Shown here: positions 2,451 through 43,494 of the stretch, one piece after another | How positions within the stretch are numbered: the stretch's first letter is position 1 | Layout: every line of letters starts with the position of its first letter | Sequence record: PP434423.1 | DNA: 64,000 nt | Reading direction: 5' to 3' (one strand) | Source: Escherichia phage 236Ecol005PP | The notes under the pieces: model-generated | What the model saw: only the letters and a program-made list of their open reading frames with translations | The model's database searches: none | Told to the model about the DNA's origin: nothing | Program-made: the position numbers and the translations under genes

Positions 2451-4264
2451 TGTCTCATCCATTCTTTACGAAGGTCAGCATTATCTCCCATGAGCATTTC
2501 AAAAAGCTCTTTCCAATTCTCAGGAAGTTTAACAACATCATATACTGGATTTTGAATCATCTCACGATATTCAGATTTTTCCAGAGAGCCAAGTCCCTTA
2601 ATATAACGGATGCTATGTTTAGGTAGAGCATCTTTGGCACTCTCATATTCAGCGACTGTATAAAACCATTCTTGTTTTTTACCGACCTGAGCGATGATTA
2701 CAGGAGTTTTGACAAAGCGAATTCTTCCTTGTTCAAACAGTTCTGGCCAATTACTAAAAAATCCGAGCAGAGAAGGATAAATGCTTCCTAGACCATCATG
2801 GTCAGCATCGGTCATAATAGCAATATTATGATAATTCAAGTTTTCAGCCTTTTCACCAAGAACTAATCCAGTGATTGCGCAAATATCAAACAGTTCTTTG
2901 TTTTTAAGCATATCAGCATATGACATACCCCAACTGTTAAGAACTTTACCGCGCAATGGATAACCACCATGAAGTTCTTTATCACGAACATCAATAAGAT
3001 ATCCAATAGCCGAATCACCCTCAGTCAAGAAAAGAGTAGTGTCAGCATCTTTACCACAAAGATTCGCTTTAATATGTTTATGAACCTTAGCTTTAGAAAC
3101 CTTTTTAGCTGCTTTAGTTTCTGCTGCTTTTTCTGCCGCCAATTTACGAGCCAAGGCAGCTTCAATAATCGGCATTAAAATTGCTTCATTATTTAGAATA
3201 GCACGTGAAATCTTTTTAGCATCAAGCTGAATATGACTACGGATTTCACCAAATGGAGAAGTCAAACGCTCTTTAGTTTGAGAATCAAATCGCATGTTTT
3301 TCATATCACGAACAAACATAACGATAGTCAAACATTCTTTAACACGTGCTTTAGTTACATCAATTTTGAACTTGCGTTTGATTTGTGGAATAAGGTCTTC
3401 ACAAATATCATCCATAACACAGTCAATGTGATGGCCACCATTCTTAGTATGAATGTTATTGACGTACGTCAACTGACGAAAACCATCAGGTGAACGACCA
3501 ACCGCAATAGAACAATTTTCTTGTTCTTGAACGATAGCATGTTCATCATACTGCCGTGCATATTTCTTAAAATTACCCTGAACTTTTTTACCATTAAAGG
3601 TAAATTGAATATCAGGATAAACTACTGCAAGTGTCTGGAGACGATCTAATGTAATGTCAAGATAAACCTGAGATAGCTCATTAGTTTCAAATGACATAAA
3701 ATCAGGAATGAAAGTAACGCGAGTTCCTTTCCATTTTCCAGGAATATCTTCCCATGATTTATTTTCCATGCCATTTGAACAACGAACTACAATATTATTT
3801 TGACCATCACCAGTTTCACCAACAAACATCACAGAAAAAATGTTTGTCAAACTAGAACCAACACCATTCATACCGCCAGTGACGCGTTCTTTATCATCAC
3901 CGAAGTTACCACCTGCTTTTGGAATAGTCCATGCAGCAACAGGACCAGGAATTTCTTCGCCGGTAGGTGTTTTAACCATCGCCTGTGGAATACCGCGACC
4001 GTTATCTTCAACTGTTACTTGATTGTTTTTAATAGTAACATTAATTTTATTTGCGAATTTAAACTTAGTACGAATACCTTCATCTACTGAGTTATCGATA
4101 ATTTCATCAATAAGCTTAACAAGACCAGGTACATACTGAACACTTTCCCATTTACCAAACAGAAAGCGCTCATGCATTTCATTAGCTGAAGAGCCAATGT
4201 ACATGCCGCTACGCTTTTTGATATGTTCAATATCGCTCAGAATTTTAATTTCATTCTTAATCAT
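2447..4264 (-). CDS. 39: DNA topoisomerase II large subunit, GyrB-like ATPase plus Toprim in one uninterrupted ORF
   Basis: 605 aa from ATG at 4264 (GAGGA SD 6 nt upstream); ELVDNSVDE-like ATPase motif and LTEGDSA Toprim motif. Confidence 0.9.
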   Translation of the reverse strand: MIKNEIKILSDIEHIKKRSGMYIGSSANEMHERFLFGKWESVQYVPGLVKLIDEIIDNSVDEGIRTKFKFANKINVTIKNNQVTVEDNGRGIPQAMVKTPTGEEIPGPVAAWTIPKAGGNFGDDKERVTGGMNGVGSSLTNIFSVMFVGETGDGQNNIVVRCSNGMENKSWEDIPGKWKGTRVTFIPDFMSFETNELSQVYLDITLDRLQTLAVVYPDIQFTFNGKKVQGNFKKYARQYDEHAIVQEQENCSIAVGRSPDGFRQLTYVNNIHTKNGGHHIDCVMDDICEDLIPQIKRKFKIDVTKARVKECLTIVMFVRDMKNMRFDSQTKERLTSPFGEIRSHIQLDAKKISRAILNNEAILMPIIEAALARKLAAEKAAETKAAKKVSKAKVHKHIKANLCGKDADTTLFLTEGDSAIGYLIDVRDKELHGGYPLRGKVLNSWGMSYADMLKNKELFDICAITGLVLGEKAENLNYHNIAIMTDADHDGLGSIYPSLLGFFSNWPELFEQGRIRFVKTPVIIAQVGKKQEWFYTVAEYESAKDALPKHSIRYIKGLGSLEKSEYREMIQNPVYDVVKLPENWKELFEMLMGDNADLRKEWMRQ

Positions 4265-14978: not shown

Positions 14979-15648
14979 CATCTTCTTTTCTGAATAAGTA
15001 AATTAAATTCTTAAGAGCTGAACTTGTTACATCATATTTTCCTTTAAGCGCCTTTACAACCGGGCCTGTTGCTGGTTTACCTAAAGAAACCCATAACTCG
15101 TGTATTTCGCTTTTAAGTGGTTCATGCCAATGCGGTGCTTTTCTTTGCGCCCTTGAAGTTCCTTCTGAAATCTTTTTATTTCCGCCATTTGAATAAAACT
15201 TTTTCATTACTTCAGATTGCCGAGCTTTTCGTTCTGCTCTATTTTGGGCTATACGTTGTGAATTCTTCATCCGAGTTTTTGTTTCAGGGTTGTTTAATCT
15301 AAGTTTATGTTCTAATCGTTGTTGCTCAGTCCATTTTCTTCCTTCTCCACCCTGACCACCAGGAGAAATATTAATGCAAGTATCTGGGTGTTTACGTTTT
15401 AATGCAGATATTAGCTCGCGTTCAACTTCATATGATTTTTCTCTAGAACCATGGCATTTTGACCAACGTATTTTATAATTAAAACCATACTTACGATATA
15501 TGTTCCATAGTATTTTGCCTGAACCCGGATATTTATCATCATATGGATTTACAATAAATGATTCATGTTTTCCAGCGTACCAAAAGACGCCTTTCGGCGT
15601 CCTAACTTTTACTATATATGTTCTATAAAATTTTTGTTTAATACCCAT
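14974..15648 (-). CDS. segF: GIY-YIG homing endonuclease (SegF-like)
   Basis: GIY-YIG N-terminal motifs; 224 aa from internal ATG; lies between soc and 56 as segF does in T4. Confidence 0.65.
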   Translation of the reverse strand: MGIKQKFYRTYIVKVRTPKGVFWYAGKHESFIVNPYDDKYPGSGKILWNIYRKYGFNYKIRWSKCHGSREKSYEVERELISALKRKHPDTCINISPGGQGGEGRKWTEQQRLEHKLRLNNPETKTRMKNSQRIAQNRAERKARQSEVMKKFYSNGGNKKISEGTSRAQRKAPHWHEPLKSEIHELWVSLGKPATGPVVKALKGKYDVTSSALKNLIYLFRKEDV

Positions 15649-16153
15649 TATCTTGACGTTCAAAATTATGTTTATTTTTCAAATAATAAAGTTTAAAAAT
15701 TTCTTCCGCATTCATTCCAAGGCCAGCAAACATATTTAATACGAAATGAAATATATCCACAAGCTCAAATTTAATTTCGAGCTGATCTTCTGGGGACATT
15801 TCATCAATGCGTTTTTCTTGCGCTTCAATATAACGTGCTTTCCATTTTTTCCAAACTGCCGATGCATCTTTTTCACCACGTGACATTTCACCAAGAGAAG
15901 TCAGAAGTTCGCGGAATTCATCATCAATACAGTCTTTTTGTTCACGCATCCAAGAAACAACATCACCGGCAGTTTCTAATTTATCTGGATGATAGCAGTA
16001 TTCGCGGTCATTTGCTAAACGAACTTGCAGAGATTTCTGCATATCAAGCATAACTTGCAGTGGGTCTTTTTCATCACCGAGAATATCCCAGTATTCGTTT
16101 TGAGCTTTATCAGCGCCTTCGATCAGTTGACTACATTCGTTAAAGTATGCCAT
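15638..16153 (-). CDS. 56: dCTPase/dCDPase
   Basis: 171 aa from ATG at 16153 (MAYFNECSQL); matches recalled gp56 size and position. Confidence 0.8.
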   Translation of the reverse strand: MAYFNECSQLIEGADKAQNEYWDILGDEKDPLQVMLDMQKSLQVRLANDREYCYHPDKLETAGDVVSWMREQKDCIDDEFRELLTSLGEMSRGEKDASAVWKKWKARYIEAQEKRIDEMSPEDQLEIKFELVDIFHFVLNMFAGLGMNAEEIFKLYYLKNKHNFERQDNGY

Positions 16154-16184
16154 TATTTTTCCTTTCAATTCATGAGTTAGTAGA

Positions 16185-16216
16185 TTAATTATACAATAAA
16201 TATATAAAGCAATAAG
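16185..16216 (-). promoter_or_regulatory. middle promoter (MotA box ATTGCTTTA plus TATAAT) upstream of gene 56
   Basis: plus aagcaa 16207-16212 and attata 16188-16193. Confidence 0.45.
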
Positions 16217-16224
16217 GAGGATAT

Positions 16225-16425
16225 ATGGTACAAAAATTAATGGCACTTGTTAATGCCATAAAAGGTAATAAAAAACGTATAGCTTTTACTATTTCTGCTA
16301 TGATAGGAATTTTACTTTGGAATTTTGTTTTATCGCCAGTTGCTATTGCTCATGGCGTTAGTATTCCAGTAGTTACTCTTGATACATTCGTAGATTTAGC
16401 ATTTGCTTTAGTTGGGTTAATTTAA
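16225..16425 (+). CDS. small membrane protein on the plus strand
   Basis: 66 aa, two hydrophobic segments; strong SD AAGGAGG 6 nt before ATG; stop overlaps gene 61 stop region. Confidence 0.5.
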   Translation: MVQKLMALVNAIKGNKKRIAFTISAMIGILLWNFVLSPVAIAHGVSIPVVTLDTFVDLAFALVGLI

Positions 16426-17450
16426 ATCTTAGCATATTTAGATAGCCGCATTTTAGCCATTAACCCCTGGGCAATATTATTTTTCATATATTCCATAATT
16501 TGTTCAGGGGTTGCACCTTCCTTTCTAATCATATCATTAACATCTTTTGATTTCCAGGGAGATTTATCCCAAAACATAACCCTTTCTCCTGCATCAACTA
16601 ATTTAGTCATTCGTTTAATAGTGTCAGGGTGACGAGGTTCATTATCTAAGACCCACACTCGTCTATCTTTAAATGGAACAACTTCTAGGTCTAATTGACC
16701 ACCCGTAATAGCTATACCATTTTCAATAAAAAGTGAATCTATAGGTCCTTCTAGAACATATACATCACCATTTTTAACTCGTTCGACTCCATATATTTTT
16801 GTTGCCTCAGGATAAGCTTTGATGGTGATATATTTTTGAGGAGCATCTTTCTTTAATGCACGTCCTTGAAAAGACTCAGCTTTTCCATTAGCATTATAAA
16901 TTGGAATAACAAGACGAGGCTCAGGTATTTCCTTTTTATATGTTCCCGGTGCTATGCTATTAACTAATTTAGGCCATTCGGTTGTAAACCAAAGATATTT
17001 CCATTTGTCCTTTGGAATACAACGAGCTTTTACGTATTTTATAATTGGATGGTCTTCCGCCAGTTTATCTAATCTAATGCATGACGGAAGAGATTTAATT
17101 ATTTTCTTCTCAGGTTGTTTAGGAAGTTCTTTAGGTTTTTCTACTGGACGACTTTTACCTTTTTCTTTTCTTATTTCAAAGATATACTCACGATATAAAT
17201 CAGGTTCAAACTCCTTTAAATATATTCCGATTGGTGCATGATAGTTGCAGTTATAACAATGAATATTTCCTTCATTATTATCGCCATAATACCATCCACG
17301 GGCTTTATTTTGGTCGGTTTTTGAATCTCCACAAACAGGGCATCTAAACCGCAATTTAAAAGTTGAACTATTATTTACTTGTGTGAATTTAGGTAAATGA
17401 GCTAATGCACGGTATGCAAACTCATTATCAATCCAAGGTATTGATGACAT
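16422..17450 (-). CDS. 61: DNA primase
   Basis: 342 aa; N-terminal zinc-binding CPVCGDS...CYNC and Toprim-like core. Confidence 0.9.
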   Translation of the reverse strand: MSSIPWIDNEFAYRALAHLPKFTQVNNSSTFKLRFRCPVCGDSKTDQNKARGWYYGDNNEGNIHCYNCNYHAPIGIYLKEFEPDLYREYIFEIRKEKGKSRPVEKPKELPKQPEKKIIKSLPSCIRLDKLAEDHPIIKYVKARCIPKDKWKYLWFTTEWPKLVNSIAPGTYKKEIPEPRLVIPIYNANGKAESFQGRALKKDAPQKYITIKAYPEATKIYGVERVKNGDVYVLEGPIDSLFIENGIAITGGQLDLEVVPFKDRRVWVLDNEPRHPDTIKRMTKLVDAGERVMFWDKSPWKSKDVNDMIRKEGATPEQIMEYMKNNIAQGLMAKMRLSKYAKI

Positions 17451-17452
17451 TT

Positions 17453-17617
17453 TTACTCTTCTTTTTCTTTAGATTCCTCTTTTTTCTTTTTAGGAATCTG
17501 TTCAGGACCTTTATTTACTACAGCGCCTGACGTTGTTCCGGTAGAGATATTTTCAGGATTACCGCCTGAATCTCCAGCGACCATATCTTCTTTAATAAAT
17601 TCTTTATATGTTTTCAT
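17453..17617 (-). CDS. small hypothetical protein (61.1 position, sub-threshold ORF)
   Basis: 54 codons, MKTYKEFIKEDMVAGDSGG...; stop 2 nt before gene 61 start. Confidence 0.35.
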   Translation of the reverse strand: MKTYKEFIKEDMVAGDSGGNPENISTGTTSGAVVNKGPEQIPKKKKEESKEKEE

Positions 17618-17618
17618 A

Positions 17619-18230
17619 TTAACCTCTATTCATAAAAGCATTAAAAATTTGGTCATCAATAGACTGTTTTTCTGATGGTAATTCATATCCACATATTACA
17701 ATTTTGTGATCAATATCAAAATACACAGAAGCAATATGATTAATGATGTTTTCAGTAAAGTCTAAATCAACATCAATATCTTTTTGACCACAGCCCAAAG
17801 GATAAATAATGCGAGTAATTCGATTATCTTTAACAAAGATTCCACCGACATACTCTGTGCTGCGTTTAAAGTCTACACGCCGACGAAATGAAAAATATTC
17901 AGGCTCTTTATGAGCTCGGCTCATAGGACACAACGAGTAACTAGAATAAGAGATGTCAAATCCTACGCCTTCAATATGAGCCAAAGTATCATGATTAAAC
18001 CAATTATAATCGTACGCCAAATCCATTAAATTATAATATGTAAAAGGCACCGGATTAACATCATTAGTCACAAGCATGTAATTAGCAACTGCTATAATTT
18101 CATTGTTTTTAACGAATACAAACCGCGATTGATGTGAATGACCTGGACCCGCGTTTTCACGATTAATGATATAACACTGGGCACCTTTATATTTGTATGT
18201 ATCTTTGCACTTGTGCATTTGATAGAGCAT
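17619..18230 (-). CDS. hypothetical protein (61.2 position)
   Basis: 203-aa ORF. Confidence 0.5.
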   Translation of the reverse strand: MLYQMHKCKDTYKYKGAQCYIINRENAGPGHSHQSRFVFVKNNEIIAVANYMLVTNDVNPVPFTYYNLMDLAYDYNWFNHDTLAHIEGVGFDISYSSYSLCPMSRAHKEPEYFSFRRRVDFKRSTEYVGGIFVKDNRITRIIYPLGCGQKDIDVDLDFTENIINHIASVYFDIDHKIVICGYELPSEKQSIDDQIFNAFMNRG

Positions 18231-18523
18231 TATTCACCTACCACTTCAGCAATGATATTTTTATTATTAAAGTTTTTATCGCAATATAGAACATAATTAT
18301 ACTGCATTACACCACCAGACTTAAGCTGTTTTTGCACTTCAGCTTTCATTTCAGGACGATCACGCTCAACGATATTCATAATATCCGCTTCAATTTGAGT
18401 TTCAACTTCAGTCTGATCTGCAGTCATAGACCATTCACACAAATCTTTGTCATAACCCGCCATAGCAGGCTGAGCAGCACAAGAAGATAAAGCAAAAATT
18501 GCAGCAAAGATAAATTTTTTCAT
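18230..18523 (-). CDS. sp: Spackle periplasmic protein
   Basis: 97 aa with signal peptide MKKFIFAAIFALSSCAAQPAMA; matches recalled T4 Sp. Confidence 0.8.
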   Translation of the reverse strand: MKKFIFAAIFALSSCAAQPAMAGYDKDLCEWSMTADQTEVETQIEADIMNIVERDRPEMKAEVQKQLKSGGVMQYNYVLYCDKNFNNKNIIAEVVGE

Positions 18524-18583
18524 GATAATCTCCTCAGTAGTTTATGTTTATAAAGTATCTCAATTTCCAATAAAAGTAAACAG

Positions 18584-18841
18584 TTATTTTAAAACTTCTG
18601 CATAATCACATGTTACAAACTGTTTCTCTAACTTGGCGATTTTACGAAAGTATCTTTTGCATTGGCGAATCTGCCGCTTCGTAGGGCGCACAGCAAACTT
18701 AATAAATTCCACTCGACCAAATGGAGGACTTTCTTCTGCTGGAATATCTAACACCAATTCCCATGTATCTGCAACAAGTGCTTTGAATTGAGTATTTTTC
18801 CTGACATTATACGGAGTAGGTTTAAATAAAACAATGCGCAT
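18584..18841 (-). CDS. hypothetical protein (61.4 position)
   Basis: ORF trimmed to internal ATG to avoid 41-nt overlap with dmd. Confidence 0.4.
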   Translation of the reverse strand: MRIVLFKPTPYNVRKNTQFKALVADTWELVLDIPAEESPPFGRVEFIKFAVRPTKRQIRQCKRYFRKIAKLEKQFVTCDYAEVLK

Positions 18842-18842
18842 A

Positions 18843-19025
18843 TTATCCTCGGCAATCCACTTCGCATACTTTCTTGTCATCAATGAAAGCTTTAACTAGT
18901 GCTTTATTAACTTCAGCATATTGAGTAGTAGCCCATTGAACGTCATCTTTCATCATTGTGATTTCTTTAGTAAACATGCTTTCATTCTTAAACCACCCCA
19001 TAAAAACTACCTTTACCAATTCCAT
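18843..19025 (-). CDS. dmd: Dmd (discriminator of mRNA degradation; antitoxin against RnlA/LsoA)
   Basis: 60 aa MELVKVVFMGWFKNESMF...; matches recalled T4 Dmd. Confidence 0.7.
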   Translation of the reverse strand: MELVKVVFMGWFKNESMFTKEITMMKDDVQWATTQYAEVNKALVKAFIDDKKVCEVDCRG

Positions 19026-19083
19026 AACAATCTCCTCATTTAACCAACAAGACTACTATACCATAGTCTTGTCAGCTTGTAAA

Positions 19084-20511
19084 CTAAAATTTTAATTCAT
19101 TTGCCAAAGCATCTAACTGAGCTCGGGCCGATTCATTTCTTTGATAGCGGTTCTGTTCAGCCTGAATCTGCTGTGAACCTGCTACTTCGTTCACTTCAGT
19201 TGGAGTAGAATCTTGTTCAATTTCTACCCATTTCTGATTTCCTTTTTGAACACCCATCAAAAACTTATTCCATTTATTCTTATCACCATATCGTGATTTG
19301 ATTTGCTTGATGAGTTGTTGTTCAGCAGCTGCTAACTCCTCGGTTTCAATGACCGCAAGCATAAAATCGGCTGTTGCTGGAAGACCGGCAGATTCTGCAA
19401 TATCGCTCATGTTAACATCAGAAGAATCCCAAGCTTGCTTACCAACCTGCGCTGCAGTCCAAAGAACAGTTTCGGTTTCAACAGCCAGAGCACGCAATTC
19501 CTCTGCAATGGCTTTAACAGTTGTGTAACTATTTTCTGAGTAAACCCTGATGCGACAAGATTTACAAATACCTAGATAGTCAACAATAATGATTGTTGGA
19601 ACAAAATTCTTCTTGAGCTTCAATTCGTTCAAAAGAGAACGAAATGTATTAGCGTCTGCTCCACCAGTAGGATACTGTTTAACGATTAAACGTCCAAGAG
19701 TAGATTTCTCACGCCATTTTTCCATTTTTCCTTTATATTCAGCGTAAGAAATATGCCCATCATCAATGTCATCAAGAGAAACATCAAGCATATTAGCATC
19801 AATACGCTTAGCACAGACTTCTTCTGCCATTTCCATGGAAATGTAAAGAACATTATGTCCGAGCTGCAAATAATCTGCTGCCAATGAACACAATCCTAAT
19901 GACTTACCAACGTTAACACCAGCCATTAAAACGTTCAGTGTTCCAGTTTCAGCTCCGCCTTTAGTAATTTTATTTAGAATTTTGAGTTTAAATGGAACCT
20001 TACGAGCTTTATTCATATAAGATAGCCAACGTGCTTCGTAGTCATCCATCCAATCATGACCAACGTAGCTATCAAATGAAACTGATAATGCTTGGCGCAT
20101 GATGTCAGGAATAGCACCTACATCTGGCATTTTCTTATTTCGTTTTTCTGGAGGAAGCTCAGCATTAGTTTGAATTTCAATTATTTTAGACGTAGCATTA
20201 AACATCGCCCTTTGCTGAACATATTTTTCTGTTTCTTTTACTAACCAGCTATGGTCTTCCGGAGAATCAGCTAGTTTTGAAATAAGTGTTTTTACACCAG
20301 AATATTCTGTTTCAGTAAATGAACTATTTTCTAATGCAACATTTAACGCATTAATAGATGGAACGCTATGGTACTCATTAACATGAGATTTAATTAATTT
20401 GAATGTATTTTTAGCTGGACCACTTTCAAAATATTCTGAATCCATATATGGCCAAACTTTTGAAAAATAAGCTTGATCAAATATGAGATGAGAAAGAATA
20501 ATTTCTACCAC
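19084..20511 (-). CDS. 41: replicative DNA helicase (DnaB-like)
   Basis: 475 aa; Walker A GVNVGKS. Confidence 0.9.
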   Translation of the reverse strand: MVEIILSHLIFDQAYFSKVWPYMDSEYFESGPAKNTFKLIKSHVNEYHSVPSINALNVALENSSFTETEYSGVKTLISKLADSPEDHSWLVKETEKYVQQRAMFNATSKIIEIQTNAELPPEKRNKKMPDVGAIPDIMRQALSVSFDSYVGHDWMDDYEARWLSYMNKARKVPFKLKILNKITKGGAETGTLNVLMAGVNVGKSLGLCSLAADYLQLGHNVLYISMEMAEEVCAKRIDANMLDVSLDDIDDGHISYAEYKGKMEKWREKSTLGRLIVKQYPTGGADANTFRSLLNELKLKKNFVPTIIIVDYLGICKSCRIRVYSENSYTTVKAIAEELRALAVETETVLWTAAQVGKQAWDSSDVNMSDIAESAGLPATADFMLAVIETEELAAAEQQLIKQIKSRYGDKNKWNKFLMGVQKGNQKWVEIEQDSTPTEVNEVAGSQQIQAEQNRYQRNESARAQLDALANELKF

Positions 20512-20520
20512 ACTTACTCC

Positions 20521-20883
20521 TTAAAAGAATTTAAATTTTTTCTTTGACCTTTTATTAAATGCATCTTGTAGTTGCATTGTAATACACTTTTCTACATGAG
20601 GAGCTAGCTCAGCTTTTCTTTCTTGGTCAAGAACAGCAAAGTCCATTACGACTTTTCCATCAACCCAATCTAATTTTGTCACATACACAATGTGTGTAGA
20701 ACCATCTTCTAGTTTAATGACAATCTCCTGGATAACATTTTCCATGGCAGATTTAATTATCTTAAGAGATTCATTAAAAAGACGTTCTTTTCTTTCTTCT
20801 TCCCCCTCCGAAGAGGGGGATTCATCGATAATTTCTAGATCTAAATCTAAATCATCTTTATTCATTAAATTCTTCCATATCAC
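20521..20883 (-). CDS. 40: gp40-like protein (head vertex assembly chaperone position)
   Basis: 120-aa acidic protein between 41 and uvsX. Confidence 0.45.
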   Translation of the reverse strand: MIWKNLMNKDDLDLDLEIIDESPSSEGEEERKERLFNESLKIIKSAMENVIQEIVIKLEDGSTHIVYVTKLDWVDGKVVMDFAVLDQERKAELAPHVEKCITMQLQDAFNKRSKKKFKFF

Positions 20884-22039
20884 TTAACTGATCTAGGTCA
20901 GTTTCTAAATCAGCTGCTGATTTACTTTTACTTTCTGGAGATTTAAATTTTTCAACCTTTGAGTTAATCAATTCATCAACTTCAGCTTCAACAATTTCAT
21001 TACTATCAATAGCACCTAACTGATAAGCACGTTTAATAGCATCTCGGAATGGTTGATGCTTAAATAAAGGACCCCAGAATGTAGTGCAATTGGTATCTTT
21101 TGCACGCCAAGATTTTTCTTCGCGAATCATCTCACCGGTTTCTTCGTCAAGAAATTCACGAGCATACCAACCATTTTTAGGTTTTACTACAAATCCTAAT
21201 TCAAGAGCCATATCTAACAATCCAGAATAAGGATCGATGCCACCGTCAAATTTAACATCAATAAAGAATTTACTTTTTTCTTTAACGGTACGAGATTTTT
21301 CTACATTTAGAACAAATTGATACCCCTGAAGATCAGAACCATCTTTAATCTGGCGCTTACCGATAATGAATACAGTATCAGCCGAATACATTACGCCTGT
21401 ACCGCCTGTCATCACGGTTTTACTAAACATTTCAATTGTTTCAATTGTATGGTTAACCGCAACGCACGGAATGTTTTTAATACTAAAATAAGGAGTAACA
21501 ATACGGAATAATGACTTCAGTGATTTAGCACGAGTCATATCTGCCACAGATTTTTCATTCAAGGCATCTTCCGTTTCTTTCTTAGAAGCCATATTACCGA
21601 TTGAGTCGATGAATACAATAACTTTTTCACCGCGCTCAATAGCTTCAAGCTGATTCACCATATCAATTTTCAGCTGTTCAACTGACTGGATTGGTGTATG
21701 AATTACTCGTTCCGGGTCAACTCCCATGGATCGCAAATAAGCTGGAGTAATACCAAATTCGCTATCATAGAATAGACACACCGCGTCAGGATATTTGTTC
21801 AAATACGCCGCAACCATAGTCAAAGACATATTTGATTTAAAGTGTTTAGAAGGACCTGCAAAAATGGTTAAACCAGACTGCATACCACCATCAATCGCAC
21901 CTGAAATAGCAATATTAAGCATCGGGATTTTTGTACGGATTACATCCTTTTCATTAAAGAATTTAGATGTAGTCAGTTCAGCAGTCATTTTAGAAGTGGA
22001 AGCTTTAATCAAACGGGATTTTAAATCTGCAATAGACAT
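20858..22039 (-). CDS. uvsX: UvsX recombinase (RecA-like)
   Basis: 393 aa; close to but not identical with recalled T4 UvsX (MSIADLKSRLIKAST...). Confidence 0.9.
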   Translation of the reverse strand: MSIADLKSRLIKASTSKMTAELTTSKFFNEKDVIRTKIPMLNIAISGAIDGGMQSGLTIFAGPSKHFKSNMSLTMVAAYLNKYPDAVCLFYDSEFGITPAYLRSMGVDPERVIHTPIQSVEQLKIDMVNQLEAIERGEKVIVFIDSIGNMASKKETEDALNEKSVADMTRAKSLKSLFRIVTPYFSIKNIPCVAVNHTIETIEMFSKTVMTGGTGVMYSADTVFIIGKRQIKDGSDLQGYQFVLNVEKSRTVKEKSKFFIDVKFDGGIDPYSGLLDMALELGFVVKPKNGWYAREFLDEETGEMIREEKSWRAKDTNCTTFWGPLFKHQPFRDAIKRAYQLGAIDSNEIVEAEVDELINSKVEKFKSPESKSKSAADLETDLDQLSDMEEFNE

Positions 22040-22338
22040 TCATTTTTTCCATAAGCATCATTATATTTTCCTCACGGTTTAATAGAGGGTTTATACTTAG
22101 AGTAACTACATTAAAACTTATTTAAGATAGAATAATTTTATCACTCAATCTTTTAGCATTATCGCTTGAAGTCTCAGTTAACTGGGCGTTTGGCTATTCG
22201 ATGAAATTCTCTCTTTTCTAACCAACATAACAAAAAGTCCCAAAAAAGCAAACAGACCTAAACCGATAAAGCAACAAAGGTCCTAACATTTATTCCACCG
22301 GTTAAAGATAAATAACTTTCTAATAATAGTTCATAATT

Positions 22339-23393
22339 TTATAAGTCAATAGCTTTTTTGAACGCATCTTGCCATTCGGCTTTCTTTGCACGAGTTTTAT
22401 TTAAAATATCATGTTGAATAGAAAGCATCTCTTTACGTAAAGCATCACTGCGTTTTAACTCATTGACTCTATCAATGAGTTCAGCACGATTATTTACATA
22501 AAAACGAGCATCATTAATAATTCGATGTTTGGTATCAAATTCTTCATCAATTAGCATCACCGCATCAGATGCCATTGTTTCCCAGACGCGTAAGGTAATA
22601 AAGTTGTCATTGTAATTCTTGTCACCAATAATTAATGCAACGATAGCTTGACTATTCTTTTCAGATACCATTTCATAGGAATTTTTCCAGTGAACACTGG
22701 AGCTTTGGTCCAAGGATATTTAGGATTTTTAAATTGTTTTTCTCGTGCAGTGCCAAAAAACTCAATATTTAAACCTGTGTCAAATAAGAATTCTACCATC
22801 TTGGATTCGCGTTGACCAGACCGAAATGAACCACCATAAATAACATCCAAAGTTTTCTTGGTAGGCTTAGATATTTGAAAATCGTTTATATGAATTTTAT
22901 ATTGTTCAATAGGAAAATATTCGAATTCAATAACATTATCAACTTTCTTATGCGCAGCCTTAGCAATGTTTAAATTTATACCTTGGGAAATCACTTTAAT
23001 TGGTGATTTAATTAATAGCTCTTCTTCAGTGTACAAATATGCCCATGGTCTATTTTTAACATTTGGCCAAGACTGAGAAAATGGCAAACGTATATCTGTA
23101 AATAAATAATAAATTTTACTTTTGTATTTTGCCATAAATTTTTGCGCAGATAAAACTGCTAAATTAGGTTTACCACCAAAAAAGTTAATAGAAGAATTAA
23201 CAACTATCAAACGGTCATAATCATTAACATCTACTTCATCAAAAGATTTAGTGTAAACATCATTTTTAAGAGAAATAATGTCGACATTAAGACCCATTTC
23301 AGAAATAGCTTTAAAAAGATAAATAGTTTCAGAAGATGAAATAGTTTTAAAATCAATAACATTATTACCCATATTAATTATAGCAATTTTCAT
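22339..23393 (-). pseudogene. bgt: DNA beta-glucosyltransferase, apparently disrupted by a -1 frameshift near 22670-22676
   Basis: two adjacent-frame ORFs (253 aa N-terminal, 124 aa C-terminal) whose joined length is about 351 aa; junction KIPM / MVSEKNSQ. Confidence 0.6.
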
Positions 23394-23416
23394 ATTATTC
23401 CTTTTATATTAAACGA

Positions 23417-24157
23417 TTAAGCGTATTTTCCTATATAATCTTTTTTCGAAATATGTGTTTCGCCAGTTTTCCACCAATGGTCAACCAAATAAAAATGACG
23501 AGAATACACATGAAGGCTTCCGACATTCCATATAATGGAACCTGCTTTATACTGGCGAGTTGAATCACCTGCGTTCAAATCAGATACTAATTTATCTAGT
23601 ACGTATTTTTGCCACGCATAATCATTACGGAATCCGAAGACCACGTCATTTGAACGCATATTAACCACTGCATTGACTTTCTTATCACGAATCAGGTACT
23701 GTACTGTATTAGTACACATGAAATCTGACATGCCATCTTTATTGTAGTCAAACTGCATAGATGGACGAGTATAAATCATGATACCACGTCGAGAATCAGG
23801 ATTTTGACCAAGTTCAGCTAAACACATATCATACTGGGCATAGTTATCTTCTGACCAGATAGCCCAACCATAATTTGAGTTAATTTCACCTTTAGAAGAT
23901 GCTACTTGTTGCCAAATCTTCGGTGTTTCACCCGGAATATCTTTAACGAACAAGCTCTTAGATTTATACCATTCAAGTTCACGCTGAATGTATTCATCAT
24001 TAAGAGCGCCAAAAATAAACGGTTCATCTGCTACAAATGATGCGCCAATAATTTCAATAGTTTTAACACCAGTTTTATCAACTACGAAATCTTTTTCCTT
24101 TAATGCAGTTCCCAAATGAAGACGGATTTCTTCAACTGTCATAGAGTCACTAATCAT
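23417..24157 (-). CDS. 42: dCMP hydroxymethylase
   Basis: 246 aa; thymidylate-synthase-like fold motifs. Confidence 0.9.
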   Translation of the reverse strand: MISDSMTVEEIRLHLGTALKEKDFVVDKTGVKTIEIIGASFVADEPFIFGALNDEYIQRELEWYKSKSLFVKDIPGETPKIWQQVASSKGEINSNYGWAIWSEDNYAQYDMCLAELGQNPDSRRGIMIYTRPSMQFDYNKDGMSDFMCTNTVQYLIRDKKVNAVVNMRSNDVVFGFRNDYAWQKYVLDKLVSDLNAGDSTRQYKAGSIIWNVGSLHVYSRHFYLVDHWWKTGETHISKKDYIGKYA

Positions 24158-24164
24158 TTAAACC

Positions 24165-24314
24165 TCAATTGATACATTCATATTTAACTTGTAACAGTAA
24201 TAAACCCCAACCTAAAATAATAGTTGGAATCATAAGAGGAACCGTTACACTATAGTATATACTTATTATAATCATCAAGATTAAAAGCAATGCTGCTATA
24301 ATTTTGCTTTTCAT
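24165..24314 (-). CDS. small hydrophobic protein (sub-threshold ORF)
   Basis: 49 aa MKSKIIAALLLILMIIISIYYS...; ATGA overlap with imm stop. Confidence 0.3.
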   Translation of the reverse strand: MKSKIIAALLLILMIIISIYYSVTVPLMIPTIILGWGLLLLQVKYECIN

Positions 24315-24562
24315 TCCTTCTCTCTGATGATAATTACCTGATTTGGCTGCGCAGACTTTTTAGTTTCACCTGCAATTGACCAAATAAATGTAATAAACCA
24401 ACCAATAATTGACCAGTTAAACAGTAAAGATGTGAAAAAGATTCCTACTGTCGATTTTGACCCGCGCATCAAGGCGATAAACCATGGAAGCATGTATATA
24501 ATAATAGCCAACACGCCTGAAACTAAAACCATAAAAATTGAACCTGCTACTAAAGTTTCCAT
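24311..24562 (-). CDS. imm: Imm, immunity to superinfection membrane protein
   Basis: 83-aa two-TM protein; size and position match recalled T4 Imm. Confidence 0.75.
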   Translation of the reverse strand: METLVAGSIFMVLVSGVLAIIIYMLPWFIALMRGSKSTVGIFFTSLLFNWSIIGWFITFIWSIAGETKKSAQPNQVIIIREKE

Positions 24563-24569
24563 GTTTTCC

Positions 24570-24947
24570 TCACTTAGTCAAATTTTTTACACATAAATTA
24601 TAAGAATTTACTACATACTCCATCGGAGCATTTTTACCAGTACGCCACTGGTAATTATTAGCCCAATTTGCCCAAAGTTCTGCACAGTAGTTTTCAATTT
24701 TTTCTTCGCGTGTAATTACATCCGAATTACGATATGCTTGAGCAGATTCATCTGGACGAATAGCTTCGTCAAAATTCGCCTGCATTTGTTCTACTGTCTG
24801 TTTTGGAGCTTCTTTATAACACTTGACATTAGGATTATAAAATTTGCTTGAACAGTTTACAATTTTTCCTACATCAGACTGATTTACTACCGGTCCTTGA
24901 GCTACACAACCAGCAAGACCTAATGCAATAACCAAAATAGCGATTTT
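24570..24947 (-). CDS. putative lipoprotein
   Basis: 125 aa from ATG at 24947 (MKIAILVIALGLAGC lipobox); GGAG SD. Confidence 0.5.
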   Translation of the reverse strand, partial: KIAILVIALGLAGCVAQGPVVNQSDVGKIVNCSSKFYNPNVKCYKEAPKQTVEQMQANFDEAIRPDESAQAYRNSDVITREEKIENYCAELWANWANNYQWRTGKNAPMEYVVNSYNLCVKNLTK

Positions 24948-24984
24948 CATTTCATTCTCCAAATCCGTATCAGTAGTTGATAGT

Positions 24985-25020
24985 TGTATAGTACCACAGA
25001 GGAACGGTCTTGTAAACAGT
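24985..25020 (-). promoter_or_regulatory. T4-type early promoter (GTTTAC / TACTAT) with conserved upstream AAAATTTTTTCACAAA
   Basis: plus gtaaac 25012-25017, atagta 24988-24993. Confidence 0.55.
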
Positions 25021-25098
25021 TTTGTGAAAAAATTTTTAATGAATTCACAGGGCCCAGAATCATCTATTTTTCCTAAGTATAGATTTATATTACTTGTA

Positions 25099-25121
25099 TG
25101 AAAAAGGGACCTGGAGGTCCC
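25099..25121 (-). terminator. rho-independent terminator after gene 43
   Basis: gggacc-tgga-ggtccc hairpin with A-run on plus strand. Confidence 0.55.
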
Positions 25122-25134
25122 TAGATTTATTCTA

Positions 25135-27831
25135 TCAGCCAAACAGGAAGTCTAACGAAGCTTTTTCTTCATAGTCCATGCCAGCCGATTCACACATACC
25201 AGCAAGCGGTTTAACAAACGATTTTTGGAACAAAGTTGAGTAGTCAATCCAAGATAGTACGTCAGAACGAATTTCTTTTGGAAGTTCTGTGCCTGATGGC
25301 CAAGCAATGCACTTGTCACCAAATGGATTTCCTTCACGTAATGGAAGAACCATTACCTTATTTCCATCCAAAATTGGAGCTACACCTAAACCGCTAACAG
25401 CTCGACGATAAGTTAGCACACCACGAATATGGAACGGACATTTAAATCCTGGCCAACCTTTATCATCATATTTCGCTATATCGTTCGCAGTTTTTACTTC
25501 AGCAATAACTTTATAGTCAAGTTGACGATATTCTTTCTCAAAGTTCTTGTAGTATTCTTGGACAGACTCTTCACCTTCCTGAAGAATACGACGAATACTT
25601 TCTTCGAGAGCTTCTTGTACTGCTTTTGGTGTTGAACTCTGTTGAGTTTCCATACCCATGATTTTTAGATGTGGTTCAGCAAATCGCTTATCTTCCATAT
25701 CATAAACGTTCAGAGCATAACGTTTTTTCGCTTTCCAAAATCCACCAACACCCTTTGAACCAAGCGGAGGGCAAGAAATAGCTTCACGGTCCATATGCAT
25801 CAGATGCTCACGGTTATTCATATAATCACATAACTCACGATATGCAACATCAATCATAGGTTCCATCTTTTTCTTACCAAACTGATTCATGAATTCAACT
25901 AAATCATTTTGTTCTTTAAAGCGGTCAAGACCTACTTTTTCAATTACTTTATCTACACAAACATATACCGAATCAGTATCACCTGCTGCGATGAAATCTT
26001 CACCATCAGTTCCACACACTTTATTTAGATATTCATTAATTTTACGAGCAATCCACTGAATACCGACTTGACCGAAAATTGTGATAGCAGTAGCATTTCG
26101 CAAATCATAGTAACGGAAATGAATATTACCAAGAGCACCATAAAGACTGTTGATAAGAATTTTACGGTTCAGCTGATTTGTGTTAGCGAGTGTAGCAGCT
26201 TTTTCACATTCTTCGATCAGACTATTAAGAACAGATTCGGTGTAATTCGATAATTCGTTTAAGAAATCATCATTGAACTTAACATATCGTTCAACTTCTG
26301 GTTTAGTTGAACAAGACCCTGCACCTTTCATAATAATCTTTTTAATAGCTTCGGCATTCATTTCTTCAGCGAACATTTTCTTTTTCCAATCTTTACGCTG
26401 GAAAAATACTTTAGCGATTTCCTTTGGAATGATACCTTCTTGGTGCTTATCATACATCCATCCATTCGGAGAACAAGAATATTCATCACTTGGCTTAGGA
26501 GCTGTTCCTGCGATATATTCATGAATTGGATGAACTTTGAACTGTCCACGAATAGTCTCAGGACTAATGTTAACCTGACGAATAATGCTAGGATACAGAG
26601 ACGTCAAGTCAAAACTCATAATGTATCGACGAGCAATCGGTTTAGGTTCAAACACAAATGCACCTGGAAAACTTTGTTTAACGTGCGAACCTTGTTGAGG
26701 AATAACCTTGTGTTCACCTTTCAATGAGTTAAAAATAATAGCATCCCAAGTTTTAATAGGACTCATTACACCAGAAAAAGGCATTTTAGCATAATAAGAC
26801 ATACTTAAAACTAGATCGATAAACCCACGAATTTTATCAATTGCTTGAACTGATTCTACGTCAATGATGTTATAACTAATGTATCGTTGATGATTAGTCT
26901 CACGAAGTTTATTAATAGGACCGTCGTATGGTAATTTACCTTTTTTGGTTTCATGTTGAGCAACTGATTCCAAAGAGAATGACGGCAAATTAGTAAATGC
27001 GAATTTCTTGTACAAATCTAAATAATCAAGAATAGATACGCCATCAATAGAATAAATTTCTTTGCTACCGTACACATTTTGAATTAGTTTAGATTTTACC
27101 CGACCGATTGGAGAGAAACGTTTCATACTGCGTTCGCCGAGAACCATTTTAACGCGATTCATGATATACGGAACGTCAAATCCCTCAATATTCCAACCGG
27201 TAAAAATAGCCGGTCGTTTCTGTTCCCAGAGATTAATATATTCCATGAGCATATCACGCTCATTATCGAATGGCATATAAATTACTCGGTCAAGAATTTC
27301 TTGAGGAACTTCATCACCACCTTCACAGTCAAGCTTAGCAGCTAACTTTGCATCCCATTTTGATACTGAACCGTACATTGAATTCAACAAATCAAAGACG
27401 TAAAAACGGTCGTCAATTGAATCATAATGAGTGATAGCATCAATTTCATATTCTGCTTTCATTGGGTCAGGAAATTTATCGCCAGTAACCTCAATGTCAC
27501 AGTTAGCTACACGAACAAATTTTCGGTCATAAACAATTTCTGAACCATACGTATCACTGATATAAGCGAGTTTAAAATCGTTCATACCGAGAGCTTCGAG
27601 ACCGATGTCTTCCATTCGCTTCATCCAGTCTCGTGCATCTTTCATTGATGGAAATTTTTGAGGAGCACAATTTTTACCATAAATGTCTTTGTATTTTGAC
27701 TCTTCCTTACAATGCCTAAACATAGTCGGAAGATATTCTACTTCGCGAGTACGTTCCTTTCCATTTTCATCAATATAACGTTCAACAATATTATTTCCGA
27801 CTGTTTCGATAGAGATATAAAATTCTTTCAT
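25135..27831 (-). CDS. 43: DNA polymerase (family B) with 3'-5' exonuclease
   Basis: 898 aa; exo and pol motifs (YGG, DTDS). Confidence 0.95.
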   Translation of the reverse strand: MKEFYISIETVGNNIVERYIDENGKERTREVEYLPTMFRHCKEESKYKDIYGKNCAPQKFPSMKDARDWMKRMEDIGLEALGMNDFKLAYISDTYGSEIVYDRKFVRVANCDIEVTGDKFPDPMKAEYEIDAITHYDSIDDRFYVFDLLNSMYGSVSKWDAKLAAKLDCEGGDEVPQEILDRVIYMPFDNERDMLMEYINLWEQKRPAIFTGWNIEGFDVPYIMNRVKMVLGERSMKRFSPIGRVKSKLIQNVYGSKEIYSIDGVSILDYLDLYKKFAFTNLPSFSLESVAQHETKKGKLPYDGPINKLRETNHQRYISYNIIDVESVQAIDKIRGFIDLVLSMSYYAKMPFSGVMSPIKTWDAIIFNSLKGEHKVIPQQGSHVKQSFPGAFVFEPKPIARRYIMSFDLTSLYPSIIRQVNISPETIRGQFKVHPIHEYIAGTAPKPSDEYSCSPNGWMYDKHQEGIIPKEIAKVFFQRKDWKKKMFAEEMNAEAIKKIIMKGAGSCSTKPEVERYVKFNDDFLNELSNYTESVLNSLIEECEKAATLANTNQLNRKILINSLYGALGNIHFRYYDLRNATAITIFGQVGIQWIARKINEYLNKVCGTDGEDFIAAGDTDSVYVCVDKVIEKVGLDRFKEQNDLVEFMNQFGKKKMEPMIDVAYRELCDYMNNREHLMHMDREAISCPPLGSKGVGGFWKAKKRYALNVYDMEDKRFAEPHLKIMGMETQQSSTPKAVQEALEESIRRILQEGEESVQEYYKNFEKEYRQLDYKVIAEVKTANDIAKYDDKGWPGFKCPFHIRGVLTYRRAVSGLGVAPILDGNKVMVLPLREGNPFGDKCIAWPSGTELPKEIRSDVLSWIDYSTLFQKSFVKPLAGMCESAGMDYEEKASLDFLFG

Positions 27832-27835
27832 AGAT

Positions 27836-27870
27836 ATTCCTTAGTTTATAGCCCGAGTTATTAGGCTCTT
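27836..27870 (-). promoter_or_regulatory. gene 43 translational operator (hairpin plus SD)
   Basis: minus-strand AGCCU-AAUAACUC-GGGCU hairpin 5' of AAGGA SD and ATG. Confidence 0.5.
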
Positions 27871-27887
27871 GATATATTATACTCCAA

Positions 27888-27907
27888 ATAAGGGGCCGAA
27901 GCCCCTT
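27888..27907 (-). terminator. UUCG-tetraloop hairpin after regA
   Basis: ggggc-cgaa-gcccc; U-rich downstream on minus strand. Confidence 0.5.
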
Positions 27908-27909
27908 GC

Positions 27910-28278
27910 TTAATTACCAATCGTATATTTAGGAACGAGTTTCCATTCATGTTTTTGTTTAAAAGAAATAACTCGGAAGTTATTAGTTAAATCTTTCATA
28001 AAAGTTCTTTGACCAGGAACGATTTCAATCAGTCCCCAATCTTCTAACAGCCATGCAATCGAATCACGACGAACTTCATCTTCTTCTGTCATTTCAACTT
28101 GACGACCATCCATACGAAGCATTTCTTTAAAATGAACGATATAATATAGTCCTTTTTTCTGAAGAATGTGGCAGGACTGATATAGAACTTTATCTTTATT
28201 ATTAGCAATTCCCATACGAGTCAGAGTTTCTTTAACTTTCAGAAAATCTTCAGGTTTTTTAAGAGTAATTTCAATCAT
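27910..28278 (-). CDS. regA: RegA translational repressor
   Basis: 122 aa; size and position between 62 and 43. Confidence 0.85.
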   Translation of the reverse strand: MIEITLKKPEDFLKVKETLTRMGIANNKDKVLYQSCHILQKKGLYYIVHFKEMLRMDGRQVEMTEEDEVRRDSIAWLLEDWGLIEIVPGQRTFMKDLTNNFRVISFKQKHEWKLVPKYTIGN

Positions 28279-35147: not shown

Positions 35148-35165
35148 AAAGGGCCGAAGCCCTTT
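35148..35165 (-). terminator. UUCG-tetraloop hairpin after agt
   Basis: aaagggc-cgaa-gcccttt overlapping agt stop codon. Confidence 0.45.
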
Positions 35166-36366
35166 ATTTTGTAATAATGTCAAACTGTTCTTTAAAGCAG
35201 AAGCTTGAATCTTGGTGCTGATACAAAAATTCATAAGCTTTTTCACGTTCACGGTCATAAAGAGCTCGGTCAGATGACAGTTCTTTAATACGTTCGAGTG
35301 TCGATTCCATGTCATTTTCATCAAACCAAATGATACCGCTATCATGCGAGGTCAAAGGAGTATTATCAACACGGAATTTCAAATTATCACCCGTTGATTT
35401 CCAGAAAACAGGAATTGTACCACAAGCACCTAATTCAAGATGAGTATATTCGAGTGAGCGTTGTAAGTATTTCTGGTTAAGTTTACTCAACTGATATCCA
35501 AAGCCAGATTTACTCATTCGTTCAAGCATTTCACTATTAATATAACAATCTAGGATTTGTGCCGGTTGATTCGGCGCGAGATTCATTTTATCAATCTCAC
35601 GATTACCGTAATATTCATGCGGAATACCTTTTTCCTTAATTGCAATAAAAGCAGGGGAACGTTCAAGACCTTCCATTACAGTGGATTTACCAGCAGGTTT
35701 TAAGAATTTTTCATGAAAATCAAACATCTGATAAAAACCTTTCCATGTAGTCGTACGACCAATCCAACGGTTGATGTTCATGTTAATTTCAGAAACATCT
35801 TTCCAATAAGTTGACCGAACCTTCGCAATATCCATAGGAGGCTGAAAATTATATACTGTTGGTGCTTCTTCAATATCATCAAACAGAGAAACAGTTTCTG
35901 GATACCATTCTTTCATCAGAACTTTATTAAAATCACCATTATCAGAATGGCTAAAAATAACATCAGCTCGACGAACAGTTTCTTCTAATCCCAAATTTCG
36001 ACGCAAAGAAAGCACAGAATGATCATGCTGATAAACTACAACACGAATAGAAGGTTTAATATTATCTAAGAGTTTTTTATAGTTATTAATCGTAGCTTCT
36101 TGAACGGAAGTAGCAGGAACAGAATTAATAATTAGAATATCACAATCATTAATCAATTTAAGTGCTTTATCGTATTCTTTAGCTAAAATAACTGGAATTG
36201 AAAATGATTTGTGGTCATGAGAACTTGTACGAGTAAATGATTTATCTTTAGCATAAACCAGAGTTACTTCATGACCATTTTTAATGAACCAATCACGTTG
36301 CTCAAGAGAAAATTTAGTTACGCCGCAACCTTCAAGACCCCGAGCCATAAAAATGCATACTTTCAT
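35164..36366 (-). CDS. agt: DNA alpha-glucosyltransferase
   Basis: 400 aa; sequence MKVCIFMARGLEGCGVTKFSLEQRDWF... matches recalled T4 Agt. Confidence 0.9.
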   Translation of the reverse strand: MKVCIFMARGLEGCGVTKFSLEQRDWFIKNGHEVTLVYAKDKSFTRTSSHDHKSFSIPVILAKEYDKALKLINDCDILIINSVPATSVQEATINNYKKLLDNIKPSIRVVVYQHDHSVLSLRRNLGLEETVRRADVIFSHSDNGDFNKVLMKEWYPETVSLFDDIEEAPTVYNFQPPMDIAKVRSTYWKDVSEINMNINRWIGRTTTWKGFYQMFDFHEKFLKPAGKSTVMEGLERSPAFIAIKEKGIPHEYYGNREIDKMNLAPNQPAQILDCYINSEMLERMSKSGFGYQLSKLNQKYLQRSLEYTHLELGACGTIPVFWKSTGDNLKFRVDNTPLTSHDSGIIWFDENDMESTLERIKELSSDRALYDREREKAYEFLYQHQDSSFCFKEQFDIITK

Positions 36367-40701: not shown

Positions 40702-41172
40702 TTAATCATGTTTCCACACCCCATCGGTATTTGACCAAAGTCGCTGATTATCTGAACCTCGCCACAGCTTTTTGGTCGGAAGATTTTTCTCATACTTCCC
40801 ATCAATAATAACATCAACATATTTAAGCATTTCTAGTTGTTTAATATCTTCAAACTTATATCCTGTCCACAACCAAATGCTTTTATTCGGATAAAGATTT
40901 TTTACTGTTTGAACAATGCAATGAACAACATCTCGGTTATCAGGATAAAGAGGGTCACCTCCAGTTATAGTTAATCCTTCTATATAATCATTATTCAAAC
41001 ATTCAATTAATTGTTCTAGTGTTTCACCAGTGAATGGAACGCCATTTCTAGCATTCCAAGTACTACGATTATAACAACCTTCACATTTATGCAAACAACC
41101 TGTAACGAAAAGAACGACCCTGCATCCAGGGCCATTCACAAAATCGCAAGGATAAAATCTATCATAATTCAT
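40702..41172 (-). CDS. nrdG: anaerobic ribonucleotide reductase activating protein (radical SAM)
   Basis: 156 aa; CLHKCEGC radical-SAM cysteine cluster. Confidence 0.9.
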   Translation of the reverse strand: MNYDRFYPCDFVNGPGCRVVLFVTGCLHKCEGCYNRSTWNARNGVPFTGETLEQLIECLNNDYIEGLTITGGDPLYPDNRDVVHCIVQTVKNLYPNKSIWLWTGYKFEDIKQLEMLKYVDVIIDGKYEKNLPTKKLWRGSDNQRLWSNTDGVWKHD

Positions 41173-42448
41173 TGGTGTTTAACCCTATGCATGATTTCTT
41201 TATTTTTGCCGAGATTAAATCCACGTTCGTTCGGATTTCCCAAATAACCACAAGTTCTTCTTATTGTGTTCATCTTTTTAGGATCAGTTTCTCCACAAAT
41301 AGAACAAACAAATCCGTTTTCAGTAGGAGTCATTTCATGAGTGCTTCCACACGTAAAACATTTATCTACTGGCATGTTAACACCAAAATAATCTAAATGT
41401 TGTGCAGCATAATCCCATACAGCCTCAAGACCTTTTAGGTTATTTTTCATATCAGGAAGTTCAACATAAGAAATGTGACCGCCTGTTGCAATGAAATGAT
41501 ACGGGGCTTCGCGAGAAATCTTTTCAAACGGAGTAATATTTTCTTCTACTGAAACGTGGAAACTGTTAGTGTACCAGCCTTTATCAGTAACATCCTTTAC
41601 ACTTCCATATTTTTCTGTATCAAGTTTACAGAAGCGATAGCAAAGGTTTTCAGCAGGAGTAGAATACAAGCTAAAAGCAAAACCGGTTCTTTCAGTCCAC
41701 TGCTTAAGACGAGCATTCATTTTAGTTAAAATTTCCTGTCCAATATCACGACCGACAAGAATATTCAATTCGTGAATACCAATGTATCCTAGGGACACTG
41801 AACTTCTACCGTTTTTAAATAACTCAATTATGTCGTCATCAGGTTTAAGACGAACCCCGAATGCACCTTCTTGGTAAAGAATAGGAGCAACAGTCGCTTT
41901 AACTCCTTTTAAGGAACTAATTCTACACATCAATGCTTCAAAACACAAATCCATTCGTTCATTGAACAATTCGGCAAATTTCTGTTCATTGAACTGTGTT
42001 CCAATATAAGAATCTAATGCAATACGAGGAAGATTCAGTGTTACAACACCAAGATTATTACGTCCATCAAGAATTTCATTACCAGTCGAATCTTTCCATA
42101 CGCCCAAGAAACTACGGCAACCCATTGGAGAAACAGGAATAGATGAACCAGTGATAGCTTTATTGTTCTTAGCTGAAATAATATCAGGATACATTCTTTT
42201 ACTTGCACACTCTAGAGCAAGCTGCTTAATATCATAGTTCGGATCGTCTTTATAAAGATTAACACCTTCTTCAACGAACATAACAAGTTTAGGGAAAATA
42301 GGAGTTATCCCATCACGACCAAGACCTTTAATACGATTTTTCAGAATTGCTTTCTGAATCATTCGTTCAGTCCAGTCAGTTCCCGTACCAAATGTAATTG
42401 TTACAAAAGGCGTTTGTCCGTTAGAGCTGAAAAGTGTATTTACTTCAT
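41169..42448 (-). CDS. nrdD: anaerobic ribonucleotide reductase NrdD, exon 2 (boundary approximate)
   Basis: glycyl-radical enzyme C-terminal region with C-terminal Cys cluster; 3' splice site placed after a G at 42449 so exon1+exon2 = 605 aa. Confidence 0.65.
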
Positions 42449-42474
42449 CATTATATTCAGCATGAGTCGCAAAT

Positions 42475-43246: not shown

Positions 43247-43275
43247 TGTTTCACCTCGTATTCATAAGATAATCT

Positions 43276-43283
43276 TATTTATA
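43276..43283 (-). promoter_or_regulatory. late promoter TATAAATA inside intron, upstream of endonuclease ORF
   Basis: plus tatttata about 30 nt upstream of ORF ATG at 43246. Confidence 0.5.
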
Positions 43284-43494
43284 CAAGATGACTGCTGCAT
43301 GTCGCCATGCAGATTAGACTATATCTTCATCTTTCGATGCCGGCCGTTTCGAATAGCATTAGCTTCTATTCTACACCGCTACATTCATCACGGTTAGTCG
43401 TTAGGCATTTAGTTCAAAAGAACATTTAGCACGGGATTGTCTACTAGAGAGGTTCCCCGTTTAGACCGGTTTTACATGAGCCTGAATTAAATTA

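Follow-up and report, generated by a model that had tools for sequence, protein, structure and literature searches.

Does Escherichia phage 236Ecol005PP, which carries a gene for DNA alpha-glucosyltransferase, also make a functional DNA beta-glucosyltransferase (Bgt), or is its bgt gene silenced by a frameshift, and does that frameshift exist in the phage itself or only in its public record (PP434423.1)? We addressed these questions in a window of 64,000 nucleotides, the whole stretch of the record that was analysed, by comparing the bgt locus with its homologues in T4-related phages, metagenomic assemblies and protein collections.

One beta-glucosyltransferase gene in two reading frames

A sequence-only reading of the window had described two adjacent ORFs as a single Bgt gene split by a one-base frameshift, beside an intact agt, and comparison with homologues upholds that description. 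Both ORFs are present where they had been placed and with the peptide ends that had been given: the 253-aa ORF at 22632-23393 reads ...GKIPMKWYLKRIVKLSLH up to its stop codon, and its partner, delimited mechanically at 22339-22713 (124 aa, from a TTG start at 22713), contains ...SYEMVSEKNSQAIVAL. The two lie in different frames and overlap by about 80 nt (22632-22713). Specifically, the longer ORF matches residues 1-242 of T4 beta-glucosyltransferase (PDB 1bgt_A, 351 aa; E=8.5e-154) and the shorter one residues 240-351 of the same chain (E=1.3e-65), and the N-terminal T4-Gluco-transf domain (PF09198) is found over its entire profile in the 5' piece (positions 1-167 of 167; 316 bits against a cutoff of 27, E=6.1e-95). 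In tblastn searches of the window with T4 and HMD-9 Bgt, the intact homologues bridge the two ORFs in abutting alignments, residues 1-240 at 23393-22674 (frame -3) and residues 242-351 at 22671-22342 (frame -2). As had been predicted, one restored base gives a continuous protein: with one C put back, the frame encodes 351 aa that are 96% identical to T4 Bgt. Homology thus confirms the two minus-strand ORFs as the halves of a T4-type DNA beta-glucosyltransferase, a pattern far beyond chance. Enzymes of this type are one chain of about 340-365 aa with both Rossmann-like halves; here the frame breaks at codon 241, leaving 253 aa and 110 aa (Table 1).

The gene also lies where a T4-type bgt is expected, downstream of gene 42 in an hmC-making Tequatrovirus, and the order 42 - bgt - uvsX is the same in the window, T4, HMD-9, Pu-Krd and six metagenomic contigs. 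It shares with T4 Bgt (gene b-gt; PDB 1BGT/1C3J; PF09198) both the locus between gene 42 and uvsX and the strand, and differs from it in the broken frame. The spacer between bgt and uvsX (22040-22338) is without the segA homing endonuclease that follows b-gt in T4 and FL12, and resembles in this respect HMD-9, Pu-Krd and the metagenomic contigs. The agt product is 98% identical to T4 Agt (PF11440, E=4.6e-257), in agreement with the earlier statement that this gene is intact.

The split is already public, deposited as two adjacent CDSs. The protein cluster of the 253-aa product includes an identical entry, WWT49614.1, and an exact look-up of the 110-aa product gave WWT49613.1, both from 236Ecol005PP; these two entries, WWT49615.1 and WWT49631.1 are all on the 167,705-bp contig of this phage. 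Separately, the protein clusters include numerous incomplete pieces of T4 Bgt, Agt and UvsX that bear the label of 'Enterococcus faecalis' hypothetical proteins (WP_4114..., MFP90...) and look like T4 DNA contamination or spike-in of those assemblies.

Table 1 Coordinates of the features discussed, numbered from the first letter of the window.
Feature	Position	Strand	Description
5' piece of bgt	22632-23393	minus	ATG start; 253 aa, comprising Bgt residues 1-240 and 13 out-of-frame residues (KWYLKRIVKLSLH), then TAA
3' piece of bgt	22339-22671	minus	Bgt residues 242-351 and stop, from the ATG equivalent to Met242; 110 aa
1-bp deletion in bgt	between 22671 and 22672		gene-strand C of codon AAC (Asn241) gone (G on the + strand); private
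Other private bgt change	23082	minus	gene position 312 G to A, synonymous, Pro104 CCG to CCA; the sole one besides the deletion
Gene 42, dCMP hydroxymethylase	23417-24157	minus	intact, 246 aa, WWT49615.1; makes the hmC used by glucosyltransferases
agt, DNA alpha-glucosyltransferase	35164-36366	minus	intact, 400 aa, WWT49631.1
nrdD	41172-44032	minus	interrupted by about 1040 nt (42456-43495), as in T4
I-TevII-like homing endonuclease in the nrdD intervening sequence	42475-43246	minus	split into ORFs of 123 aa and 130 aa by the insertion at about 42907

Position and rarity of the deletion

We aligned bgt with that of 12 relatives (T4, FL12, PTE-Eco15, HMD-9, Pu-Krd-SF4, SF6, five Logan SRA assemblies and one ENA contig). 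The relatives read ATGAACATGG where the window reads ATGAAATGG, and the deletion can be placed in one way only, since it took out a singleton C flanked by As. The sequence-only reading had sited the lesion correctly, at about 22670-22676, and was mistaken about its context: it had proposed an A/T run, whereas a lone C (G on the + strand) is missing and the AAA/TTT triplet at 22671-22673 arises from the deletion itself, with no earlier homopolymer at that place.

The shortened gene is confined to this record. In the phage collection, each of the 24 full-length matches covers 1056 nt (1057 for SF6), where the window has 1055 nt; the collection does not include PP434423.1, and its nearest genomes are mosaics that are 96-98% identical. 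In bgt, the lost C and one synonymous change are all that separates the window from five Logan contigs and Pu-Krd-SF4; the ENA contig and HMD-9 have one further substitution each. At the protein level, 31 of 31 homologous Bgt clusters consist of single proteins of 336-366 aa. The other copies compared (24 phage records, six SRA/ENA contigs and 31 protein clusters) are thus intact, except for known T4 mutants and a T-run insertion in SF6, and the two fragments are each represented in the protein collection by one NCBI contig and by no independent assembly; the contig index, too, had no exact match to the 253-aa product. Exact DNA pattern scans of IMG/VR, JGI metagenomes and GTDB genomes matched neither the deleted nor the intact allele, and these collections are therefore uninformative on allele frequency. 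Downstream of the break there is no decay, the 3' piece having kept 99% identity to intact relatives. Taken together, these comparisons indicate that the deletion is private and, as such, either very recent or artefactual.

Mutation or sequence error

We lean towards a genuine, recent loss-of-function allele, with the deletion most likely present in the phage itself and not only in the assembly. The principal alternative is an error of sequencing, assembly or consensus, whereby bgt is intact in the phage, at 351 aa, and one base was dropped from PP434423.1; we regard this as a real, if lesser, possibility. It would account for a deletion that is private to one record, with fragments seen in no independent assembly, for the presence of the C in every close relative and for the undecayed 3' piece. 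Against it, the missing base is a singleton C outside any run. The earlier suggestion of a homopolymer sequencing error therefore survives only in part: an error of some kind is still a rival, and its homopolymer component is weaker than had been held because the lost base is a lone C/G. The window holds 450 homopolymers of at least 5 nt and 75 of at least 6 nt, and none of the 450 breaks a conserved gene. Across the 12.3-kb block at 15638-27913, which is 99.0% identical to HMD-9, the bgt deletion is the single gap. Two intergenic run-length changes, at 6161 and 52198, were considered as further private candidates and rejected, both being common to the closest relatives, which likewise counts against a faulty consensus. 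Judged by these comparisons, the window does not resemble a noisy or homopolymer-error-prone assembly.

When all ORFs of T4, HMD-9 and VIPECOOM01 were searched against the window with tblastn, no other broken conserved gene was found, with one exception, a homing endonuclease encoded in the sequence that interrupts nrdD. There, an extra G at about 42907 (CTGAAGAAC to CTGAAGGAAC) constitutes a second private 1-bp indel, accompanied by one private substitution at 42636. JK45 and SA20RB have the endonuclease intact, at 257 aa, and the nrdD intron is matched at 99.7-99.8% by nine further records, over a length that is smaller by one base. Uninterrupted nrdD genes are found in HMD-9 and VIPECOOM01, and an Rfam search of the intervening sequence returned no group I intron match at the gathering threshold. 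As to a clustering of private changes in the broken genes, the 4.8 kb that extend from gene 42 to gene 41 hold two such changes, both of them in bgt, a count of two events only; the exon flanks around the intron are too mosaic for private changes to be called.

This second indel bears on both readings. For an error speaks that it splits a gene in the same record, that the compared segments hold two private 1-bp indels against only two private substitutions, a high ratio of indels to substitutions as in indel-type error, and that both indels lie at G:C pairs, that is, at positions of glucosyl-hmC, a modified cytosine that may upset some sequencing chemistries. Close relatives from other laboratories also have error-like private indels, namely the T-run insertion in SF6 bgt and, in Pu-Krd-SF4 (PQ759884, locus 2858-4038), a 1-bp deletion that leaves uvsX as two CDSs. 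For a mutation speaks that both private indels fall in dispensable genes, where real indels would be expected to survive. On its own, the endonuclease indel, in a dispensable gene and in no long run, fits either reading.

Two further irregularities were recorded in the window. At 55018-55479 it has an intact 153-aa ORF, as does VIPECOOM01; the matching site in HMD-9 (locus 3331-3529) is one base short, with no CDS annotated (AAAGAAACGAAAAATGT in the window, AAAGAAAC-AAAAATGT in HMD-9), so it is the relative and not the window that is broken there. A short segment in the nrdC.1/nrdC.2 region, at 46498-46794, is highly divergent: many small gaps are needed to align it to T4, HMD-9 and VIPECOOM01, and its match to a 77-aa ORF of HMD-9 is spread over two frames, with 50-77% identity. 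Replacement or mosaicism is the probable cause here, not a frameshift.

A probable truncated enzyme and its predicted consequences for DNA glucosylation

The part that the deletion removes from the bgt product includes invariant residues of the family. Of the 32 columns that do not vary across 32 aligned family members, 12 fall in the lost part (G257, D258, Y261, N264, T267, R269, E272, S276, D283, F286, Y299 and Q327); these residues are encoded only in the downstream frame and are no longer in the same chain as D100, R191 and R195. From crystal structures of T4 BGT, we take the C-terminal invariant residues to have a role in UDP-glucose binding, with Y261, R269 and E272 presumably contacting UDP. 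In T4 strain 147 (KJ477685), which we take to be the classical non-glucosylating mutant stock, the sole bgt difference is S276F, at an invariant residue of the lost part. Deletion of the codon-241 C would shift the frame, translation would then yield residues 1-240 with a 13-residue nonsense tail and a stop, and the product, without its last 110 residues and thus much of the UDP-glucose-binding C-terminal domain, would be inactive. The loss of this conserved part makes it probable that no active enzyme results.

It is very improbable that the gene still functions through a -1 ribosomal slip (for example, at GGA AAA A, 22682-22688) or through separately made fragments that assemble. The frames do overlap, over about 80 nt, the A5 run in the overlap (GGAAAAATT) would allow tRNA-Lys to pair anew in the -1 frame, so that background slippage is possible, and the 3' piece opens with an ATG equivalent to Met242 and is annotated as a CDS in GenBank. 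Yet none of the hallmarks of programmed -1 frameshifting, a heptamer, a structure and a conserved two-frame layout, was found at the overlap: 22632-22713 has no X XXY YYZ slippery heptamer, folding of 22590-22700 reveals no stimulatory RNA structure (z = -0.76), and the two-frame arrangement occurs in this record only. The local sequence is the same in intact relatives and therefore did not evolve as a recoding site, and the homologous clusters, as noted above, are all single proteins. A slip at the A5 run would moreover give a product with I238-N241 replaced, adjoining the invariant K237, and the ATG of the 3' piece is without an AGGAG-like (Shine-Dalgarno-like) motif 5-10 nt ahead of it.

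Mutants of bgt have been known for decades and were recently characterised anew, and the gene of 236Ecol005PP is probably a pseudogene or null allele of this well-studied gene, an ordinary loss of function (or a sequencing slip). Among its closest counterparts is the engineered T4 delta-bgt (OZ209057), in which b-gt is likewise disrupted beside an intact a-gt. The T4 mutants (delta-bgt, strain 147, T4T W341* and OZ209023 Q327*) are deletions, stops or missense changes in laboratory constructs, whereas the allele described here is a 1-bp deletion in the genome of an environmental or clinical isolate. Regarding the stop alleles, W341* is carried by T4T (HM137666), and Q327* by the T4 alpha-gt deletion strain OZ209023, whose 326-aa product is found on 23 contigs; if the Q327* strain fully glucosylates its DNA, as its paper has for delta-agt, the last 25 residues are dispensable or the stop came later. 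Pu-Krd-SF6 (PQ759886, locus 1501-2557) has a near-identical bgt allele that is also divided into two CDSs through a 1-bp indel, but there a T6 run at gene position 634 has gained a T, a typical homopolymer event. In T4, delta-bgt leaves 80% alpha-glucosylation and wild-type virulence on MG1655 (10.64898/2025.12.06.692756); because of this virulence, and because public T4 records carry bgt stops, bgt is counted dispensable in the laboratory.

Since gene 42 and agt are intact, 236Ecol005PP would continue to make hmC DNA and to alpha-glucosylate it. By analogy with T4 delta-bgt, its DNA would carry about 75-80% alpha-glucosyl-hmC, no beta-glucosyl-hmC and about 20-25% bare hmC. The earlier expectation of exclusively alpha-glucosylated hmC is thus borne out in its direction, towards alpha only, and has to be amended by this bare fraction. 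In T4 delta-bgt, about 25% of hmC is bare because the alpha-glucosyltransferase modifies only one of two adjacent hmC, and the phage is strongly restricted by the hmC glycosylase Brig3 (10.64898/2026.02.25.707755); it also gives fewer Brig1 escapers, and none in an RM+ host (10.64898/2025.12.06.692756). These published data fit the further proposal of the sequence-only reading that loss of bgt alters sensitivity to host defences. T2 and T6, with an alpha-glucosyltransferase only as primary transferase, offer a natural parallel: glucosylation of this type leaves about 25% bare hmC (10.64898/2026.02.25.707755), and alpha-glucosyl-hmC with about a quarter of hmC bare would be expected in 236Ecol005PP too, with the difference that no secondary (gentiobiosyl-forming) transferase is given for it in Table S1 of 10.64898/2025.12.06.692756.

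That bgt was inactivated as an escape from a host defence recognising beta-glucosyl-hmC, in a mirror image of the agt escapers selected by Brig1, is scarcely credible, and only marginally less so is the specific version in which an undescribed defence of this kind selected the frameshift in the source E. coli isolate, with the Pu-Krd-SF6 frameshift as a second instance: Brig1 escapers do have small lesions in glucosyltransferase genes without size change, thought to be single-base indels or substitutions (10.64898/2025.12.06.692756), the deletion does remove a cytosine and SF6, a close relative, has an independent bgt frameshift, but no beta-specific defence was found in the cited literature, Brig1 being alpha-specific (10.64898/2025.12.06.692756), a phage that loses bgt is more alpha-glucosylated and has hmC left bare, which sensitises it to Brig1 and Brig3 (10.64898/2025.12.06.692756; 10.64898/2026.02.25.707755), neutral loss fits the data equally well, and nothing that we found specifically supports such an escape.

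The ordinary loss-of-function allele that we favour bears on how phages with two primary glucosyltransferases are counted. Such phages have been described as very rare, with six in GenBank, PP434423.1 among them, its 253-aa fragment taken as the beta-glucosyltransferase and its truncation absent from the text (10.64898/2025.12.06.692756). The combination of alpha and beta enzymes is found in more genomes than these six, as it also occurs in HMD-9, PTE-Eco15 and Pu-Krd-SF1-7, and the same intact bgt allele is present in six SRA/ENA contigs, for which the comparison covered bgt. What is new here is small, a split beta-glucosyltransferase gene in the record of one of the counted phages and a wider spread of the combination, and its significance is modest. 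Should the frameshift be an artefact, PP434423.1 needs to be corrected in the public collections. If it is real, 236Ecol005PP is functionally alpha-only and represents a natural loss of the 'back-up' transferase that has been argued to be kept for escape from Brig1 in RM+ hosts (10.64898/2025.12.06.692756); about a quarter of its hmC would then be bare, and the phage would be expected to be sensitive to Brig3 and other defences that target hmC.
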